Below, one piece after another: positions 5,436 to 32,680 of a DNA stretch of 64,000 bases; the stretch's first letter is position 1; every line of letters begins with the position of its first letter. Both the position numbers and the translations under genes were made by a program. Source of the DNA: Candidatus Aminicenantes bacterium (GTDB lineage: Bacteria > Acidobacteriota > Aminicenantia > Aminicenantales > Saccharicenantaceae); NCBI GenBank assembly GCA_963719985.1, contig CAVRDU010000005.1, positions 1,156,432 through 1,220,431 of the forward strand. Direction: 5' to 3'. The notes below the pieces were generated by a model. That model was given only the letters and a program-made list of their open reading frames with translations. It had not been told where the DNA came from and did not search any database.

Positions 5436-5854
5436 AGATCGCCGTCTTTCTCCCCGAGCTCCTCCGCCACCTTTTCAAGAAGCCGGCCACCGTCGACTAT
5501 CCCTTCAAGAAGCTCGAGGTGCCCCCCGACTTCCGCGGGACGCCCTACCTCGACCCCGAGATGTGCATCGTCTGCAAGGCCTGCGAGCGGGACTGCCCGG
5601 CCGAGGCCATCGAGATCACCGACGTCGATCCCGCCGAGAAGCGCTTCAAGATGGTCATCCACAACGACCGCTGCATCCACTGCGCCCAGTGCGTCGATTC
5701 CTGCCCGACGACGCCCAAGGCCATGCGCATGGACAACCTTTTCGAGATCGCGACGGACAGCCGCCACAAGCTCAAGGCCGAGTGGGTGTACGTCCGGGCC
5801 GTGATCAAGCCCAAGGCGCCCGCGCCACCGCCGCCGGTCGCCCCGGCCGCCTGA
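5432..5854 (+). CDS. NuoI-like 2x[4Fe-4S] ferredoxin subunit (MbhN-like)
   Basis: Two CxxCxxCxxxCP motifs are present (CIVCKACERDCP and CIHCAQCVDSCP). The ATG at 5432 overlaps the NuoH-like stop. Confidence 0.85.
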   Translation: MKIAVFLPELLRHLFKKPATVDYPFKKLEVPPDFRGTPYLDPEMCIVCKACERDCPAEAIEITDVDPAEKRFKMVIHNDRCIHCAQCVDSCPTTPKAMRMDNLFEIATDSRHKLKAEWVYVRAVIKPKAPAPPPPVAPAA

Positions 5855-5936
5855 TCGCCTAGCGAATTCCCCTGCCCTTATCCGCCCGCGGATCGAGGGC
5901 TTTCCCCGTTCATCTTCCGGCTCCGCGAGGCCGGCG

Positions 5937-7034
5937 TCAGATCTTCATGGGCATGAGGACGTAGATGTTCGTGATCGCTTCCTCGGCCTCAGGCTTGAGG
6001 AGGACGGCGCTGTTCTCGTCCTTGATCTCGAAAACGACCTTCTCGGAACCGACCGCGGTGAGGAAATCGAGGAGATACTGGGCGTTGAAGCCGATCTCCA
6101 GGTCCTGGCCCTTGTATTCGACCGCCAGGCGGTCGCGGGCCTCTCCGATCTCCGGGTTGGACGAGAAAAGCCTCAGCTTGTTCTTCTCGACCGTGAACTT
6201 GATCCCCTTGGACCGCTCTGCCGACAGGAGCGACACCCGGCGGATGGCCCCGGCGAGCTCCTCTCTTCCGATCGTCAACCGCCCGGGGTTGTCCTTGGGG
6301 ATGACGGCCTGATAATTGGGGAACTTGCTCTCTATGATCCGCGAGATGAGCGTCCGCGGCCCGACCCGGAAGAAGAGGTTGTTCTCGTCGAGATCGAAAG
6401 AGATCGTCTCGTCCTCGAACTTCCTGATCTCGGCCAGGGTCTTCTTGGCGACGATGACGCTCGTCTCCTTGTCGAGCTTCAGGCCGTCCTCGGCTTTGCG
6501 CGTATAGGAGAGCCGGTGCCCGTCGGTGCTGACCAGCTCGATCTGCCTGTTCTTGAGCGACAGGAGCGCCCCGTTGAGATAGTAGCGCTGTTCCTGGGTG
6601 ATCGCGAAAAATACGCGGTCGATCATGTCCTTGAAGGCGGCCAGAGGCAGCTCGATGCCTTTTTCGAACCTGGCGTCCGGCACCTGAGGGTAATCCTCTT
6701 TGGCCAGGCAAAGGACCTTGAACTCGCTTTCGCCGGCCTTGATCTCGATCGTCTCGTCCTTCAGCTCGACCTGGACGGTCTGCCCCTCGGGCAGCGACTT
6801 GACGATCTCGAATATCTTCTTGCCGTTGATCGTTATCGCGCCGGTCCGTTCGATCCCGGCTTCGAGGTGCGTCCTCAGCCCGACCTCGAGGTCCGTCCCC
6901 GTCAGTTCGATGTCCTTCTCGCCGACGTTCATGAGGATATTGGCCAGGATCGGCATCGTGTTCCTCTTCTCGACGATGCCCTGGAGGATCTGGAGCTCGC
7001 TCAGGAACGCTTCTTTCGGTATCGAGAATCTCAT
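5937..7034 (-). CDS. dnaN: DNA polymerase III beta sliding clamp
   Basis: The 365-aa protein has typical DnaN sequence throughout (MRFSIPKEAFLSELQILQGIVEKRNTMPILANILM), with a GAGGTGG RBS 6 nt upstream of the ATG. Confidence 0.95.
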   Translation of the reverse strand: MRFSIPKEAFLSELQILQGIVEKRNTMPILANILMNVGEKDIELTGTDLEVGLRTHLEAGIERTGAITINGKKIFEIVKSLPEGQTVQVELKDETIEIKAGESEFKVLCLAKEDYPQVPDARFEKGIELPLAAFKDMIDRVFFAITQEQRYYLNGALLSLKNRQIELVSTDGHRLSYTRKAEDGLKLDKETSVIVAKKTLAEIRKFEDETISFDLDENNLFFRVGPRTLISRIIESKFPNYQAVIPKDNPGRLTIGREELAGAIRRVSLLSAERSKGIKFTVEKNKLRLFSSNPEIGEARDRLAVEYKGQDLEIGFNAQYLLDFLTAVGSEKVVFEIKDENSAVLLKPEAEEAITNIYVLMPMKI

Positions 7035-7059
7035 AAGACCACCTCTCGCGCCGTTTTCC

Positions 7060-7150
7060 TTGTTCTTCGCTCTTTATTCTTTATTCTTTATTCTTAATAT
7101 TTAATTCAGAATAAGACCTAAATCAAGAAGAGAAATAAGAATGTCCTCTG
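7060..7150. repeat. AT-rich tandem repeat (TTTATTC x3 plus TTAATATTTAAT) in the dnaA-dnaN intergenic region; candidate DNA unwinding element of oriC
   Basis: A roughly 90-bp stretch of below 30% GC sits inside a roughly 70% GC genome. It contains ctttattctttattctttattcttaatatttaattcagaataag, located between the dnaA stop and the dnaN start. Confidence 0.55.
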
Positions 7151-7186
7151 GAAATGTGGGAATCCGCCCGAACTCGTTGATCCGCC

Positions 7187-8530
7187 TCATTGGATGAAGG
7201 CCAGAAGGCTGTTGATCTCTTTGTTGAATTCGGGATCGTCCGTCCTCAATTTCTCTATCTTGCGGATGCTGTGGATCACCGTCGTGTGGTGTTTTCCACC
7301 GAATTTCTTGCCGATCTCCGGGAGAGAGGACTTGGTCAGCTCCTTGGCCAGATACATGGCGATCTGGCGGGGAAAGGCGATCTTGGGGGAATTGTTCTTC
7401 GATTTGAGCTGAGAGGCCTTGATCTTGAACCTGTGACAGATGAGCTTCTGGATCTTTTCCACAGTGACGATGGTCGTCGAGGGGTCCAGAAGCCCCTTGA
7501 GGGCCTCCTTCGTCAAGTCGAGGTCGATGCGCTCCCCCTTGAGCGAGGCGAAGGCGATAACGCGGCGCAAATAGCCTTCGAGCTCGCGGATATTGGTCTG
7601 GACCTTGTCTGCGATATAAAGAGCGACGCTCTCGGGGAGAAGGACGGCCTCGGCTTCGGCCTTCTTCTGGAGGATGGCGATGCGCGTCTCGATGTCCGGG
7701 GGCTTGAGGTCGGCGATCAGGCCCCATTCGAAGCGCGAACGGAAGCGTTCCTCGAGGTGGGGGATCTCCTTTGGTGGGCAATCGCTGGAGATGACGATCT
7801 GCTTCTGGCTGTCGTAAAGATGGTTGAAGGTGTGGAAAAACTCCTCCTTCGTCCGTTCGCGGCCGGAGAGGTAGTGGATATCGTCCATGAGAAGAAGGTC
7901 GACGCTCCGGTATTTCTCCCGGAATTCCAGGATCTTGCCGTACTGGAGGTGATTGACGAGGTCGTTCATGAACTTCTCGGTCGTGACGTAGAGGATCTTG
8001 TTCCGCGGATTCTGCTGGATGGAGAAATGGCCGATGGCGTTCATGAGATGGGTCTTGCCGAGGCCCGCCCCGCCGTAGACGTACAGGGGGTTGTAGGATT
8101 TGGCCGGGTTCTTGGCCACGGCCGAGGCCGCGGCGTGGGCGAATTGATTGCAGCTGCCGACGACGAAGTTCTCGAAAGTGTAATTCGGATTGAGGTTCGG
8201 ATTGACCGCCTGTCCGGGCTTCGTCTTCCTCTCCTCGGGCGACCGCCTCATGAAAGCGGTCGGCGTGTCGTCGTGGATGTAGCGGATGTCGAACGTCTTG
8301 CCGAAGACGTCGCGGGAGCAATCGTTGATGATGTTCGAATAGTGGAACGAGAGCCAGTCGCGGAAGTAGGCGTTCGGGACCTTGACGTACAAGCAGTCCT
8401 GCTCCTGGCCGATGAAGGCCGTCGGATCGAACCAGGTCTCGAAGGAATTGGGATCGACCTTGGTTTCGACCAGCCGGAGGATATCGATCCAAGGGTTTTG
8501 TTTTTCTTTAGGTTCCATGGGAGCCGTCAT
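7187..8530 (-). CDS. dnaA: Chromosomal replication initiator protein DnaA
   Basis: DnaA domain I (NPWIDILRLVETKVDPNSFETWFDP), the AAA+ Walker A motif (GGAGLGKTHL) and a C-terminal DNA-binding domain are all present. The start codon is uncertain (the Met at 8530 or 8518; the ORF is open to 8611). Confidence 0.93.
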   Translation of the reverse strand: MTAPMEPKEKQNPWIDILRLVETKVDPNSFETWFDPTAFIGQEQDCLYVKVPNAYFRDWLSFHYSNIINDCSRDVFGKTFDIRYIHDDTPTAFMRRSPEERKTKPGQAVNPNLNPNYTFENFVVGSCNQFAHAAASAVAKNPAKSYNPLYVYGGAGLGKTHLMNAIGHFSIQQNPRNKILYVTTEKFMNDLVNHLQYGKILEFREKYRSVDLLLMDDIHYLSGRERTKEEFFHTFNHLYDSQKQIVISSDCPPKEIPHLEERFRSRFEWGLIADLKPPDIETRIAILQKKAEAEAVLLPESVALYIADKVQTNIRELEGYLRRVIAFASLKGERIDLDLTKEALKGLLDPSTTIVTVEKIQKLICHRFKIKASQLKSKNNSPKIAFPRQIAMYLAKELTKSSLPEIGKKFGGKHHTTVIHSIRKIEKLRTDDPEFNKEINSLLAFIQ

Positions 8531-8531
8531 T

Positions 8532-8605
8532 TTTTCCACAGAATTTTCCACATCTGTGGAAAATCTCTCCCGGGGGGATGGCAGCCGGAAGAGGCCTGGG
8601 GATAA
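8532..8605. promoter_or_regulatory. Cluster of DnaA-box-like 9-mers upstream of dnaA (oriC / dnaA autoregulatory region)
   Basis: TTTTCCACA occurs at 8532-8540 and 8544-8552, TGTGGAAAA at 8556-8564, and TGGGGATAA (reverse complement TTATCCCCA) at 8597-8605. Each is within one mismatch of TTATCCACA. Confidence 0.6.
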
Positions 8606-8797
8606 TAGCATTCCGGGGGGGCCAATTCAAGCTTTTTTTTAGGGGAAAAAGGCCTTCGTGGGAGGTTCGGGCCGGACGATGGCCAAGGATCGCCGAGCCC
8701 TTCGCGGGAAGGACGAAAAAGCTTGGAAATCGGCCCGCGGCGGGGTCCGGAGGCCGGCTAAAAGGGCCTGTTTTGTCGGGCTTAGAGAGGGTTCGCG

Positions 8798-9421
8798 TCA
8801 GCGTCCGAGGAGGGTCCGCTTCTCGAGCGTCGTCGTCCCAAGAAGGATGGGCAGAAGCCGGGCCCGGAGCCGGGCGGAGAGCTCGGAGAAGGCGAAGTCG
8901 GCGGGCTTTTCGACGTCGGCGTAGTCGCGCTCCTCCCGATACTCTTTGCGGAAGAGCGGCTCGCCGTCGGCCGCCGCGAGGACCGAGACCTCAACGGACA
9001 TCGTCCAACGGCGGACCTCGAGCAGTCCGCGCTCCGCGCGCTTGAACGGTCCGTCGGCGGGGATCGGCTTGTTGTCGAGGGCCTTGCGGACCTCGGTCGA
9101 CAGCCGGACCGAGCCGGTGATAACGACGGCGCGACCGCTCCCACCGGCCGGGGCGTCGGCGGCGCGCTCGAGCCGGGTGACCGGGCCCGTGAAGGCCAGA
9201 TCGATCTCGCCCGCAAGATATTCGGAGAGGGCCCGGCCGGCCGGGAAGCCTTCGACCGGGGAATCCTCTTGAAAATCGGTCACGATGATCGCGTCGAACG
9301 ATCCGGCGGAGAAGGGCGAGACGCCGGGCAGGTCGACGCGGACCTCGATGGGCCCGCCGGACCTGCAGGCCGGAGCGGCGGCCAGGGCGAGGACCAGGGC
9401 GATCGCGGCCGCGGTCCTCAC
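8798..9421 (-). CDS. Hypothetical lipoprotein
   Basis: It has a signal peptide with an LAAAPAC lipobox and is 207 aa. No recognisable catalytic motif was found. Confidence 0.6.
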   Translation of the reverse strand: MRTAAAIALVLALAAAPACRSGGPIEVRVDLPGVSPFSAGSFDAIIVTDFQEDSPVEGFPAGRALSEYLAGEIDLAFTGPVTRLERAADAPAGGSGRAVVITGSVRLSTEVRKALDNKPIPADGPFKRAERGLLEVRRWTMSVEVSVLAAADGEPLFRKEYREERDYADVEKPADFAFSELSARLRARLLPILLGTTTLEKRTLLGR

Positions 9422-9771
9422 GCGCCGCCTGCCCGGCCCGACTCCAGGCGGGCCTTGAAGGACTCGTAGTTGAGCTTGATCGTCCGGTTGGCGGGTTCGA
9501 GGCGGAGGGCCTCCTCGTACTCCCTGCGGGCCTCCTCCCAGGCGCCGCGCTTTTCGTGGGCGATGGCCAGGTTGTTGTGGGCCGCGGCCGAGCCCGGATC
9601 CTGCCGGACGGCCTCGGTCCAGTGGCGGAGCGCCGCGTCCCAGTCGTCGGCGCGGGCCGCCGAGATGCCCGCCTTGAGGGGGCCGATGGCCAACGATCGG
9701 GCGCAGGCCGAGAAGACGACGAGGCCGCCGAGGACGAGGGGGCCGACTGATGCGACGAGGAAGCGTTTCAT
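9418..9771 (-). CDS. TPR-repeat lipoprotein
   Basis: It has an LVVFSAC lipobox and a TPR-like AAHNNLAIAHEKRGAWEEARREYEEALRLEP segment. It is 117 aa and overlaps the downstream lipoprotein gene by 4 nt. Confidence 0.6.
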   Translation of the reverse strand: MKRFLVASVGPLVLGGLVVFSACARSLAIGPLKAGISAARADDWDAALRHWTEAVRQDPGSAAAHNNLAIAHEKRGAWEEARREYEEALRLEPANRTIKLNYESFKARLESGRAGGA

Positions 9772-9837
9772 GCCGGTCTCAGGGAAAGATTACGCCTTTT
9801 GGGACGCTCCGGTCAAGCGGCCGCGGGCCCGGCCCGG

Positions 9838-9866
9838 CTTGCCTGACCGGGGCTTTTGTGGTATAA
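9838..9866 (+). promoter_or_regulatory. Sigma70-like promoter for rpmB (TTGCCT, 17-nt spacer, TATAAA)
   Basis: The -35 element TTGCCT lies at 9838-9843 and the -10 element TATAAA at 9861-9866, about 35 nt upstream of the rpmB ATG. Confidence 0.5.
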
Positions 9867-9901
9867 AATCGGCTCAATCCTCGAACGAGAGAGATGCGAC
9901 C

Positions 9902-10093
9902 ATGCCGAAAGTCTGCGAGATCTGTGAAAAAGGGCCCGTCTTCGGGCATAGCGTCAGCCATTCGCACAAGTCGTCGCCAAAAAAGTGGAAGCCCAATCTC
10001 CAGCGCGTCAGAGCCCAGACCCCCAAGGGTGTCCGCCAGATCTGGGTCTGCGCGCGATGCCTGCGCTCGGGCAAGGTGGCCAAGGCCGCCTGA
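9902..10093 (+). CDS. rpmB: 50S ribosomal protein L28
   Basis: The sequence MPKVCEICEKGPVFGHSVSHSHKSSPKKWKPNLQRV is canonical L28. The upstream in-frame ORF extension is spurious. Confidence 0.9.
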   Translation: MPKVCEICEKGPVFGHSVSHSHKSSPKKWKPNLQRVRAQTPKGVRQIWVCARCLRSGKVAKAA

Positions 10094-10159
10094 CCTGGCC
10101 TATTTATTCGAACGCCCCGCTATTCTCCATCTCTGATCTATAGGCCAGGTCCTCCCCGA

Positions 10160-12301
10160 TCACACCCGTTCGACCGAAAGCACTTCCTTAAGCCCCGCGA
10201 TCCGCTTCACGATCGCCTCGAGGTGGCGGATATCCTTGATGCGCACGTCGAGGCGGATCCGCGCCTTCCCCTCCGAGATCATCGCGGCCTCGGCCTTGAA
10301 GATGTCACCGTCGAGCCCGGCGATGGCCGTGGCCACCTTGGCCAGGACACCGGGGGAGTCCTGCGACTTGACCAGGAGGCGGGCCTTGAAGGGCGCGGAG
10401 AACGACGGGTCCCAGGCGACCTCGACCTGACGCTGGGCGTCGAGCAGCTCCTTCGTCACGAGCGGGCAGCGCAGGGAGTGGACCGTCAAGCCGCGCCCGG
10501 CCGTGATGTACCCGACGACGGGCTCGCCTTTGACCGGCGAGCAGCACTGGGCCAGCTTGACCATCTGACCGTCGAGGTCCTTGATCAGGAAGCCCGGGCC
10601 CGGGGCGAGCCGGGCCTTCGCCTTGCCGAGCAGGGTCGGGCGGCGGGGCTCGACCGGGCCGAAGACGGCCTCGACGAGCTTCGGGTCGACGACGATCCGG
10701 CCGAGGCCGACCCGCCGGTAGAACTCGTCCAACGTCGCGGCCCGGAGGCCGACGACGGCGGCCACGCGCTTGGCCAGGTCCTCATCGCGGCGGAGCTCGG
10801 CCGGCAGGGCGTACTTCCGGACCTCCCGCTCCCAGAGCTTGCGCCCCAGGGAGACGCTCGTCGTCCGGCTCCGGAGGTTGAGCCAGCGCTTGAGATGCTG
10901 GCGGGCGCCGGCCGTGGCGGCCGCGGCGAGCATGGCCCGCGTCGGCGCCCTGTCGGGATCGGTCAGGATCTCGACGATGTCGCCCGTCGCGAGCGGCGTC
11001 TTGAGCGGGGCTGACGTGCCGTTGATCCGGGCGCCCGAGGCGTGCAGCCCGATCTCGGTGTGGATCTTGAAGGCGAAGTCGAGGGCGGTGGCCCCGGGCG
11101 GCAGGTTGACGACCTTGCCCTTGGGCGTGAAGACGTAGACCTCCTCGGGGATGAGGTTCGTCTTGAGGCTCTGGAGGAACTCGCGCGGGGCCTTCTGTTC
11201 CTTGAAGAGGGCGGCCATCTCCCGCAGCCAATGGAGGCGGCGGTCCTCCTTTTGGGGGCCGGGCGGGGCGTCGTCCTTGTAGCGCCAGTGGGCGGCGATG
11301 CCGTTCTCGGCGAGGTCGTGCATCTCCCGCGTCCGGATCTGGATCTCGAACATCTTCCGGTCCTCGGTGATGATCGTGGTATGCAGCGCCTGGTAGAGGT
11401 TCGGCTTGGGCATGGCGACGAAATCCCGGAAGCGCTGGGGCAGGTGAGGCCAGCGCTGGTGGATGATGCCCAAGATGGCGTAGCAGTTCTTGACCGTGTC
11501 GGTGATGACCCGGAGGGCCAGGAAGTCGAAGACCTGGTCGAAGTCGACGTCGCGCCGCTTCATCTTGCTCCAGACGCTGTACGGCCTCTTGACCCGGGAA
11601 TAGATCTCGGCCGGCAGGGCGTTGTCCGAGACGAGCCCGGCCAGGGCCTTGGTCATGGCGGAGAGGTCGGCCTCGGCGGCTTTCCGCTGCGGCTCGACGG
11701 TCGCGGCGATCTTGACGTACTCCTCGGGGGCCACGTAGCGGAACGACAGGTCCTCGAGCTCGGCCCGGATCCGGCCCATGCCGAGGCGGTTGGCGATGGG
11801 CGCGTAGATGTCGAGCGTCTCGCGGGCGATCTGGCGCCGCTTTTCCTCGTCGAGGTGCCTCAGGGTCTTGAGGTTATGGACGCGGTCGGCGAGCTTGATG
11901 AAGATGACCCGGATGTCGTCGGTCATGGCCAGGATGATCTTGCGGAGGGTCTCGGCCCGGCGGACCTCGGGCGATACTTCCTGGACCCGGCTGATCTTGG
12001 TCACGCCCTCGACCAGGTCGGCGACGTCCTTGCCGAAGCTCTCGCGGAGCTCGCCGGGCGTCGTCTCCGTGTCCTCGAGGACATCGTGGAGGAGGGCGGC
12101 GACGAGCGTCGTCCGGTCGAGCTTCATGTCGGCGAGGTAATCGGTCACCTCGAGAGGGTGGCTGAGATAGGGCTCGCCGGAGCGCCGGACCTGGCCCTTG
12201 TGGGCCTGCCCCGAGAAGACGTAGGCCTTGCGGAGGACCGCGACGTCCTTTTCGCTGATGTAGGAGGACGCCTTCTCGAGGATGTCGTCAAAGCGGACCA
12301 T
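10160..12301 (-). CDS. rel: Bifunctional (p)ppGpp synthetase/hydrolase (RelA/SpoT family)
   Basis: The 713-aa protein has an HD hydrolase domain (HPLEVTDYLADM, HDVLEDT), a synthetase domain, and TGS and ACT regions. Confidence 0.93.
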   Translation of the reverse strand: MVRFDDILEKASSYISEKDVAVLRKAYVFSGQAHKGQVRRSGEPYLSHPLEVTDYLADMKLDRTTLVAALLHDVLEDTETTPGELRESFGKDVADLVEGVTKISRVQEVSPEVRRAETLRKIILAMTDDIRVIFIKLADRVHNLKTLRHLDEEKRRQIARETLDIYAPIANRLGMGRIRAELEDLSFRYVAPEEYVKIAATVEPQRKAAEADLSAMTKALAGLVSDNALPAEIYSRVKRPYSVWSKMKRRDVDFDQVFDFLALRVITDTVKNCYAILGIIHQRWPHLPQRFRDFVAMPKPNLYQALHTTIITEDRKMFEIQIRTREMHDLAENGIAAHWRYKDDAPPGPQKEDRRLHWLREMAALFKEQKAPREFLQSLKTNLIPEEVYVFTPKGKVVNLPPGATALDFAFKIHTEIGLHASGARINGTSAPLKTPLATGDIVEILTDPDRAPTRAMLAAAATAGARQHLKRWLNLRSRTTSVSLGRKLWEREVRKYALPAELRRDEDLAKRVAAVVGLRAATLDEFYRRVGLGRIVVDPKLVEAVFGPVEPRRPTLLGKAKARLAPGPGFLIKDLDGQMVKLAQCCSPVKGEPVVGYITAGRGLTVHSLRCPLVTKELLDAQRQVEVAWDPSFSAPFKARLLVKSQDSPGVLAKVATAIAGLDGDIFKAEAAMISEGKARIRLDVRIKDIRHLEAIVKRIAGLKEVLSVERV

Positions 12302-31885: not shown

Positions 31886-32515
31886 TCAGCGGCCGCCCTT
31901 TTTCTGCGTGCCGCCCTTGGGCCCGGCGCCGTTGCCGGCCCCGGCCGCCTTTCCGGCGCCCTGGATGCCGGCGCGGAAAGAGCCCTTGCCGAAGCTGGAC
32001 TTGGTCACCTTGCCGGCCTTCTGCCCCTGGGTCATCTCGGTCTCGTCCGGCTGGCCGATCTTGTGCTGGCCTTGGTAGCCGGATCCGTCCTCGGGCTTGA
32101 CCCAGTCGGGGTCTTGGCCGTTGGGGACTCCGTCGCCGTCGTCGTCGCGCGCGAGCTGGTAGGCGTAGCCCTCAGCCGTGCCGGCCGCGGCGCCCTTCTT
32201 GTTCTGGGCCTTGTCGCCGGTCCCGTCCCCGGGCTTGGCCCAGTCGGGGTCCTGGCCGTTGGGGACGCCGTCCCCGTCGTGGTCCTTGGCGCGGTCGTTG
32301 ATCCCGTCGCCGTTCTCGTCGATGAAGGCGACGCGATTGCGATGCTGGAACTCCGGCTTCGCCTGGACCTTGTTCTGCTGGGTCTCGCCCTTGGCCTTCA
32401 GCCCGGTCTTGATCTGGGCCTTCTCCTGGGCCTTGGTCGCGGTCTGGTCCTGAGCGGCCGCGAAGAGCATGCCGACCATCAGGATCCCGACCATGATCGT
32501 GAACATCTTTTTCAT
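31886..32515 (-). CDS. Secreted protein with thrombospondin type 3-like Ca-binding repeats (DGDGVPNGQDPDW x2)
   Basis: It has a signal peptide (MKKMFTIMVGILMVGMLFAAA) and a GGAGG RBS. It is 210 aa, with Asp/Gly-rich Ca-binding repeat motifs. Confidence 0.7.
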   Translation of the reverse strand: MKKMFTIMVGILMVGMLFAAAQDQTATKAQEKAQIKTGLKAKGETQQNKVQAKPEFQHRNRVAFIDENGDGINDRAKDHDGDGVPNGQDPDWAKPGDGTGDKAQNKKGAAAGTAEGYAYQLARDDDGDGVPNGQDPDWVKPEDGSGYQGQHKIGQPDETEMTQGQKAGKVTKSSFGKGSFRAGIQGAGKAAGAGNGAGPKGGTQKKGGR

Positions 32516-32551
32516 CTTATGACCTCCTAAGTCATGGATGCCAGACATATA

Positions 32552-32569
32552 TGCGAAAGGCGTGCCAAC
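32552..32569 (-). promoter_or_regulatory. Sigma54 (-24/-12) promoter TTGGCACGCCTTTCGCAT driving the 31886-32515 gene and the downstream operon
   Basis: The minus-strand sequence TTGGCACG-N4-TCGCAT is one mismatch from the TTGGCACG-N4-TTGCA consensus. It lies about 35 nt upstream of the start codon. An AT-rich tract and palindromes further upstream could be IHF or EBP binding sites. Confidence 0.65.
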
Positions 32570-32680
32570 ATGGATATATAAGAAAACAAAAAAGATATAA
32601 AAATCTGCGGAGCCGCGGACCGACAAAAATGTCGGACCGAACGACATTTTCGGCATCCGATGCCCGCGTCGGCGGATTCC

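Follow-up and report, generated by a model that had tools for sequence, protein, structure and literature searches.

Does the AT-rich island between dnaA and dnaN in the genome of a Candidatus Aminicenantes bacterium open to start replication, and do the short tandem repeats inside it have a part in this? The window analysed here is a stretch of 64 kb of this genome, and all positions given below refer to it. A preliminary description had singled out three copies of the heptamer TTTATTC in the spacer between the two genes as a candidate DNA unwinding element. We find that this spacer probably carries the unwinding part of a replication origin, with a layout like that of the basal unwinding system (BUS) of Bacillus subtilis, whereas the heptamer triplet looks like a recent, lineage-specific slippage expansion that is incidental within the AT-rich module.

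The island stands out clearly from the rest of the window. The 90-bp stretch with the lowest GC content of the 64 kb is found at 7055-7144 (0.244), about 6 standard deviations lower than the window mean (0.661, standard deviation 0.065), and the GC content of 7060-7150 is 0.264. By nearest-neighbour free energy, the island also contains the least stable stretch of the window, whether 30, 50 or 100 bp are considered. A 90-bp tract with less than 30% GC between dnaA and dnaN, as initially described, is therefore real, while the surroundings have 66% GC rather than the reported 70% or so. The three perfect tandem copies of TTTATTC were likewise found as described, at 7073-7093 ((GAATAAA)x3 on the dnaA-sense strand), and Tandem Repeats Finder called a repeat of period 7 at 7071-7095 (3.6 copies, 100% match). 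The sequence said to come directly after them is present as TTAATATTTAAT (7094-7105, 0% GC). The heptamer occurs five times in the window, three of these copies being in the array. Because a perfect 3x7 tandem is expected only about 1e-5 times per island of such composition, it must have arisen by duplication and not by chance.

We compared the window with about 7 kb from each of a series of relatives. A scan of species-representative genomes yielded 80 loci, almost all of them annotated as Aminicenantes or Acidobacteria, at DnaA identities of 72-95% and locus GC contents of 0.37-0.66; the DnaA proteins most similar to that of the window (77-95% identity) belong to Candidatus Aminicenantes or Acidobacteriota metagenome-assembled genomes. 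For position-by-position conservation, 76 spacers were anchored on their first 9-mer, and a search with a 16-mer taken from the conserved part added 20 metagenomic spacers built in the same way. dnaA is followed by dnaN in all 80 relatives, with a spacer of 104-146 bp that has the same plan throughout, i.e. a DnaA box, an abutting 8-mer box, a 4-nt G+C spacer, six phased trinucleotides, an AT-rich stretch and the dnaN ribosome-binding site. The minimum GC content over 40 bp of the spacer is 0.00-0.25 in each of the 80 (including 27 anchored relatives with a locus GC of at least 0.60). The AT-rich element whose loss in relatives would have spoken against the initial proposal is thus kept at this place in 80/80, even at 60-66% genomic GC.

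In the direction of dnaA (minus strand), the spacer reads GGCGGATCAACGAGTTCGGGCGG / ATTCCCACA / TTTCCAGA / GGAC / ATT CTT ATT TCT CTT CTT / GATTTAGGTCTTATTCTGAATTAAATATTAA (GAATAAA)x3 GAGCGAAGAACAAGGAAAACGGCGC / GAGAGGTGG / TCTT / ATG. The site at about 7155 that had been taken for a weak DnaA-box candidate is TGTGGGAAT (7155-7163); it gains weight from being position-conserved across the class and from heading the box/spacer/array layout. This box 1 follows the class pattern wTwTsCACA, is located 21-24 nt past the dnaA stop in nearly all relatives, and has a CAC core that is 99-100% conserved. Here it differs from the clade box TTTTCCACA at 2 positions, the number of mismatches tolerated for a BUS box (<=2); in relatives it is often nearer consensus, e.g. 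TTATGCACA and ATATCCACA. The abutting box 2, when read as the 9-mer ATTTCCAGA, also has 2 mismatches to TTTTCCACA and falls within the limits for the second box of a BUS (<=4 mismatches, within 3 bp). Among the relatives, its offsets 1-3 are occupied by T in 88-100%; C is found at offset 5 in 78%, and A at offset 6 in 71%.

The most telling feature is what comes after the boxes. Starting 13 nt past box 1, a T recurs with a period of three in the 76 anchored spacers (99, 97, 96, 67, 96 and 64% at offsets 14, 17, 20, 23, 26 and 29, respectively). Offsets 14, 17, 20 and 26 carry 1.7-1.9 bits of information compared with 0.3-1.0 at the flanking positions, and the base preceding each T varies freely among A, C and T. 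There are 57 distinct 18-mers at this array among the relatives, and at least five of the six central T are present in 72/76 spacers. On the strand that reads 5'-TGTGG-3' in the box, these trinucleotides have a central A, as do the DnaA-trios of a BUS, where at least three are required; reading in the +1 frame gives 7 consecutive NAN. From box 1 to the first trio there are 12 nt if the conserved frame is taken and 13 nt if the frame of the longest run is, both within the BUS limit of <=16.

A period of three could also be the mark of a small hydrophobic peptide gene, with NTN codons for Leu, Ile, Phe and Val and with the tandem repeat in its 3' region. An open reading frame running from ATG, GTG or TTG to a stop does cover the array in frame in 59/76 relatives. 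However, the starts of these frames range from -1350 to 0 and their stops from +28 to +100, neither being conserved, and no start codon is found inside the spacer here. Furthermore, in the 27 high-GC genomes the array has a GC content of 0.05 at its "third codon position" vs 0.86 for dnaA, so that coding is incompatible with what is seen in high-GC genomes. We regard a peptide gene as extremely unlikely.

A BUS consists of DnaA boxes, DnaA-trios and AT-rich DNA; in B. subtilis incC, located between dnaA and dnaN, these are box 6, box 7, a GC spacer, the trios and an AT-rich 27-mer (PMC6669920, PMC8287927, PMC10721633). On the box-sense strand, the B. subtilis entry reads TTATCCACA / AATCCACA / GGCC / CTA CTA TTA CTT CTA CTA (Pelliciari et al. 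2021 supplement, PMC8287927). The Aminicenantes spacer resembles it in its location between dnaA and dnaN, its orientation, the 9-mer with an abutting 8-mer box, the 4-nt G+C spacer, the 12 nt from box 1 to the trios, the approximately six phased trinucleotides with a central A on the 5'-TGTGG-3' strand followed by AT-rich DNA, and the presence of a box cluster upstream of dnaA. It differs in that the module, of 104-152 bp here and known from its sequence only, abuts the dnaN ribosome-binding site, and in that the helicase-loading partners DnaD and DnaB of B. subtilis are not expected in this organism. In published BUS entries the box-to-trio spacing peaks at 10-13 bp and the trio motif is described as degenerate (PMC8287927).

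A second match is provided by Candidatus Koribacter versatilis Ellin345, which belongs to the same phylum (DoriC ORI20010193, 1616-1658) and whose BUS entry is TTTTCCACT / TTTCCGCA / AGAC / CTA CTG TTA CTA CTG (PMC8287927 supplement). The box motif TTTTCCACA and the spacing of 12 are shared, and TTTCCGCA/AGAC nearly equals the TTTCCAGA/GGAC found here. Unlike the nTT trinucleotides of the present array, the Koribacter trios are the canonical CTA/CTG (3'-GAT/GAC-5'), and the Koribacter entry is itself a computational prediction. We also applied the published search rule for a BUS (box with <=2 mismatches, spacer <=16, at least 3 NAN). With the clade motif TTTTCCACA it recognized the site here (2 mismatches, spacer 13, 7 consecutive NTN) and, in all, 63/81 spacers, while with the general motif TTATCCACA it recognized 50/81.

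The DnaA protein fits this picture. In the cryo-electron microscopy structure, seven DnaA protomers engage six trios, with the central adenine read by Asn187 (PMC10721633), and six is also the number of trinucleotides in the conserved array. Alignment with B. subtilis DnaA (PDB 8btg) indicated that, among the trio-binding residues, E183, N187, R202, E223, E228 and R264 are identical, the replacements being I190V, K222R and N196G. Asn196 contacts the third (T) base of the trio in B. subtilis; here this residue is Gly and the third base is A. Thermotoga DnaA likewise has Gly at this position, and the Gly may carry no meaning here.

Helix opening was calculated with our own single-bubble simplification of the Benham model of stress-induced duplex destabilisation, rather than with WebSIDD (standard parameters: a 10.84 kcal/mol, b_AT 0.256, b_GC 1.303, C 3.6, K 2220RT/N, 310 K, 5-kb domain). 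In this model, opening begins at 7072-7116 at a superhelical density (sigma) of -0.045. At -0.055, opening is full over 7070-7144, and the best single state (7073-7142) has the first heptamer at one end and the last trio at the other. The destabilisation peak that the preliminary description had expected of an unwinding element is therefore present in this simplified calculation. The spacer was the most probable opening site in 78/81 loci, with a median share of opening of 0.98; this was still so in 15 of the 16 genomes with a locus GC below 45%, despite the many competing AT-rich sites.

The same calculation bears on the possibility that the true unwinding element is upstream of dnaA, near the boxes at 8532-8563, and that the island is a passive AT-rich spacer. 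One-mismatch DnaA boxes number 11 in the window vs 2.1 expected. Four of these are in that cluster, which comprises the strongest boxes of the window; it is position-conserved, together with a promoter, in nearly all 80 relatives, and many bacteria have their origin upstream of dnaA. On the other hand, the region consists of the conserved promoter and a 5' leader; its only AT-rich stretch is an A8 run, and its opening probability is about 1e-8 at sigma -0.055. Across the loci, the median share of opening of the 400 bp upstream of dnaA is 0.0, and on reading the sequence we found no phased NTN array after any of the three boxes. An upstream unwinding element is thus very unlikely.

DnaA boxes are therefore found on both sides of dnaA, three at 8532-8563, in the 5' leader behind the conserved promoter, and two at 7147-7163. 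The upstream boxes, judging from their position, probably repress dnaA; they may serve this autoregulation only, or may in addition form the second half of a two-part origin. Two-part origins flanking dnaA are represented by incAB/incC in B. subtilis and by oriC1/oriC2 in Helicobacter pylori, the unwinding element being in the downstream part.

Several observations weigh against an origin built like a BUS in the dnaA-dnaN spacer. Box 1 has 3 mismatches to the general consensus TTATCCACA, so that the published rule does not recognize the site with that motif, and even with the clade motif it misses 18/81 spacers. The trios are 3'-(T/G)AA-5' rather than the preferred 3'-GAT-5': three of the six begin with 3'-GA-5', none has T in third position (the class consensus being 3'-nAA-5'), and the fourth of the six is centred on G. 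A relaxed scan for a box followed by an NTN run gave 7 matches in the window, 6 of them elsewhere, vs 2.2 in shuffled sequences. AT-rich intergenic DNA in a GC-rich genome gives an opening peak whatever its function. The GC skew of the window does not describe a clean V at 7.1 kb. Finally, the spacer also carries expression signals for dnaN, and part of the conservation may be transcriptional or translational. The six other matches of the scan probably lie inside genes.

Some of these points determine how the evidence should be used. As the scan of a single genome is weakly discriminating, the argument rests on the conservation of phase across species and not on the match in one sequence. Since any AT island in GC-rich DNA produces a peak, predicted opening is necessary but not sufficient evidence. 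The GC skew, which flips sign near 6-7 kb and is negative again beyond 16 kb, tracks gene orientation and was for this reason not counted as evidence on the origin.

The expression signals for dnaN lead to an explanation of their own, namely that the island is only the expression region of dnaN (with TTGATT as -35, an AT-rich -10, an A-rich leader and the ribosome-binding site), the boxes being an operator that couples dnaN to DnaA, and that no unwinding takes place there. TTGATT is conserved in the high-GC clade, with the conserved block TTCTGAATTAAATAATAAGAATA downstream of it, and the A-rich leader is followed by an invariant GAAAGGTG 5 nt ahead of the ATG. DnaA is known as a transcription factor at clusters of its boxes (e.g. 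PMC13438810, PMC3245932), and AT-rich promoters also show stress-opening peaks. However, a promoter scan that recovers the dnaA promoter found no sigma-70-like site in the spacer. There is no -10 at a workable distance from TTGATT (the best, AATAAT/AATATT, needs a spacer of 19-21 nt), and no position-conserved -10 across the 76 anchored relatives. No intrinsic terminator was found in the spacer after dnaA, so that dnaN could be co-transcribed with it. Above all, the period-3 invariance and the exact box/box/4-nt/trio geometry are left unexplained by dnaN expression. We consider it unlikely that expression of dnaN is the sole function of the island, and the two functions could coexist, as they do in B. 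subtilis.

We then turn to the heptamers themselves. TTTATTC is present in 3 copies here, in 2 in the closest relative (L001, 95% DnaA identity) and in at most 1 in the other 98 relatives compared. Aligned with this genome, 10 of its 11 closest relatives show a gap where the array is and have at most one AAGAATAAA; 79/80 genome relatives lack the tandem array, and there is at most 1 copy in 20/20 metagenomic spacers. Conservation of the repeat in relatives, which the preliminary description had proposed as a check, was not observed. Other lineages have different short purine-rich repeats at the same place, e.g. AAGAAT, AAGAAG and ATAAAGATA. The AT-rich region as a whole is conserved in composition, but in sequence only among close relatives, which share TTCTGAATTAAATAATAAGAATA; similarly, the half-spacer anchored on the ribosome-binding site is 50-70% A with almost no C, and its sequence is not conserved across the class. 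Since the array is unconserved in a region that is conserved in composition only, it looks like a recent product of slippage at a site that is under selection for AT-richness and where changes in length are tolerated. The heptamer array (7076-7094) is 83% complementary to the trio array (7131-7142).

Alternatively, the heptamers could be a specific site, either a protein-binding iteron or a repeat of the 13-mer type bound by DnaA as a single strand, since each unit contains TTATT, a motif named as bound by DnaA in the E. coli unwinding element (PMC10316083). The three TTATT are on the same strand, and on reading the sequence their polarity relative to the TGTGG-oriented boxes is that of the T-rich 13-mers of E. 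coli oriC. One or two AATAA/TTATT motifs are usually retained in the area among the relatives. The likeness to the E. coli 13-mers (L, M and R; GATCTnTTnTTTT) extends to their being short T-rich direct repeats with TTATT on the strand of TGTGG orientation, beside a DnaA box. Unlike the 13-mers, the present units are of 7 nt, lack GATC, and are recent, perfect and unconserved copies, and E. coli oriC is not beside dnaA. Against a specific site also speak the absence of the tandem array from all but one of the genome relatives and from every metagenomic one, the lack of position-specific conservation of the region across the class, and the low information of TTATT as a motif in AT-rich DNA. A specific heptamer site is quite unlikely, and the heptamers are neither like 13-mers nor a conserved or defining part of the element. 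As a candidate DNA unwinding element, the proposal is supported for the island, by its predicted opening, its conservation and its box layout, but not for the heptamers, the sequence-specific part being 7125-7142.

One further variant is a mirror-symmetric module, in which 3'-NAA-5' trios would go with Gly in place of Asn196 and a second (AAN)n array would be present on the opposite strand near the dnaN ribosome-binding site. Filaments could then engage both strands, and the heptamers would lengthen the second array and tune firing. We hold this to be decidedly unlikely.

Returning to an origin built like a BUS, the division of labour that we propose has a parallel in Thermotoga maritima oriC, where a DnaA-binding trinucleotide module and surrounding AT-rich DNA that only aids melting have been shown biochemically (PMC10316083). 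The corresponding parts here, recognized from the sequence alone, would be 7125-7142 and 7061-7124. Unlike here, the T. maritima origin has TAG repeats, five DnaA boxes and a different genomic context. In the mechanism that we envisage, DnaA would bind double-stranded DNA at the two tandem boxes (7163..7147, minus strand), and an ATP-DnaA oligomer would extend from them over the 4-nt spacer onto the six plus-strand trinucleotides, from 7142 down to 7125, capturing their central adenines. The adjoining AT-rich stretch (7124 down to approximately 7061), which is predicted to be the easiest to melt in the region, would then open and provide single strands for helicase loading. The heptamer expansion, from 1 to 2 to 3 copies, would lengthen the AT-rich module by 14 bp without being a recognition element. 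We infer DnaA binding, unwinding and origin activity from the anatomy of the sequence, its conservation, the predicted helix instability and the trio-contacting residues of DnaA.

The coordinates of the features are collected in Table 1.

Table 1. Features of the dnaA-dnaN locus, with positions in the 64-kb window
Feature	Position	Strand	Remarks
dnaN (DNA polymerase III beta clamp, 365 aa)	7034..5937	minus	TIGR00663, 315 bits; after dnaA in 80/80 loci
dnaA-dnaN spacer	7035-7186		152 bp; contains the island
dnaN ribosome-binding site GAGAGGTGG	7039..7047	minus	5 nt ahead of ATG
AT-rich region	7061..7124		GC 0.23; putative easily melted unwinding module
Six DnaA-trio-like trinucleotides TAA GAA TAA AGA GAA GAA (3'->5' from 7142)	7125..7142	plus	Putative single-strand DnaA-binding module
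4-nt G+C-rich spacer GGAC	7143..7146	minus	GGCC in B. subtilis, AGAC in Koribacter
Candidate DnaA box 2, abutting 8-mer TTTCCAGA	7147..7154	minus	Counterpart of B. subtilis box 7 AATCCACA and Koribacter TTTCCGCA
Candidate DnaA box 1 ATTCCCACA (TGTGGGAAT on the plus strand)	7155..7163	minus	Counterpart of B. subtilis DnaA-box 6
GGATCAAC, copy of the conserved (G)AATCA(A) motif	7176..7183	minus	About 3 nt past the dnaA stop
dnaA	8518..7187	minus	443 aa; TIGR00362, 547 bits; tblastn covers residues 1-443 in 80 loci
Three strong DnaA boxes TTTTCCACA	8532..8563		At -22, -34 and -45 from the dnaA start
dnaA promoter-like site TTGAAT, 17-nt spacer, TATTAT, TG before the second hexamer	8602..8630	minus	Promoter scan

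The (G)AATCA(A) motif near the dnaA stop is also conserved, its A/A/T/C/A being present in 58-95% of the 76 anchored relatives at offsets -27 to -23 from box 1, with TT at -17/-16 in 89-95%. It has 3-4 mismatches to a DnaA box, and GGATCAAC could at best be a very weak third one. One-mismatch DnaA boxes are also found within the dnaA coding sequence (7270-7278, 7455-7463 and 7831-7839). They recur at the same positions of dnaA in 33-49 relatives, and may reflect either conserved codons (e.g. TVEKIQ) or functional internal boxes.

At the other end of the spacer, the GAAAGGTG of the dnaN ribosome-binding site is 79-100% conserved and is located 5 nt from the ATG in 63/80 scored relatives. We considered whether an inverted second box/trio module is built on this site, and rejected it: there is only a weak period of three, and the high-GC clade reads GGTGA/GGTGC, which is not a DnaA box. 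Its fixed distance of 5 nt to the ATG is as expected of a ribosome-binding site. This site reads GGTGGAAAA in low-GC relatives, one mismatch from TGTGGAAAA, the reverse complement of the clade box TTTTCCACA. A weak period-3 (AAn) pattern is seen in the A-rich half of the spacer if the ribosome-binding site is taken as anchor. Together with the complementarity of the heptamer and trio arrays, these features at most hint at the mirror symmetry considered above.

Other functional elements were sought in and around the spacer. A structured RNA or DNA hairpin was rejected, the folding energies being like those of shuffled sequences (z = -0.64 for DNA and +0.74 for RNA). An imperfect palindrome at approximately 7088-7114 is common only to the nearest relatives. 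There was no Rfam match in 5800-10200 at E<=1, and inspection of the island by eye revealed no match to the consensus of an integration host factor site.

The start of dnaA was placed at the ATG at 8518. The mechanical open reading frame extends to 8611, but TIGR00362 matches only from residue 41 of this long frame and the DnaA of most relatives is called at 443 aa. The 31 extra codons (8519-8611), which overlap with both the DnaA boxes and the promoter, are unlikely to be translated. That promoter is preceded by the A8 run, and its consensus in relatives is cTTGAAA, N17, TGCTATGAT. An alternative-frame open reading frame of 463 aa (7101-8492, minus strand) overlaps nearly all of dnaA and extends into the spacer, crossing the trio array, where the composition of its "codons" is wrong for this genome. 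It is therefore probably an artefact of high GC.

The GC content of dnaA and dnaN (5937-8518) is about 0.57, vs 0.65-0.70 in the rest of the window, and their GC content at first and second codon positions is below that of the neighbouring genes. The usual neighbours of dnaA, rpmH-rnpA, are absent; what is found is rpmB (approximately 9902-10093, plus strand), then a relA/spoT gene (10160..12301, minus strand). Between dnaA and rpmB, the open reading frames 8798..9421 and 9418..9771 (minus strand) have a coding-like GC content at third codon positions, and neither gave an NCBIfam match. The second-lowest-GC island of the window (32517-32606, GC 0.34) immediately precedes a minus-strand gene with its start at 32515 and the ribosome-binding site GGAGGT; adjoining a gene start in this way, it is probably an ordinary promoter region.

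In the literature searched, we found no paper linking Aminicenantes to oriC or DnaA. The island represents a new clade for a known type of origin module, which is a sound but ordinary finding. It provides a concrete, testable origin model for Aminicenantia, an uncultured class of Acidobacteriota, with exact bases for the boxes, the array and the melting region, and an origin layout that is conserved over genomes of 37% to 66% GC. The near-invariance of the central base of the trinucleotides, while their neighbours drift, is independent comparative support for the box/trio/AT-rich module as ancestral and widespread. The heptamer repeat itself matters little, other than by showing that the AT-rich module tolerates changes in length. 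In practice, the module would serve as an anchor to orient metagenome-assembled genomes of this class and to estimate growth rates from coverage.

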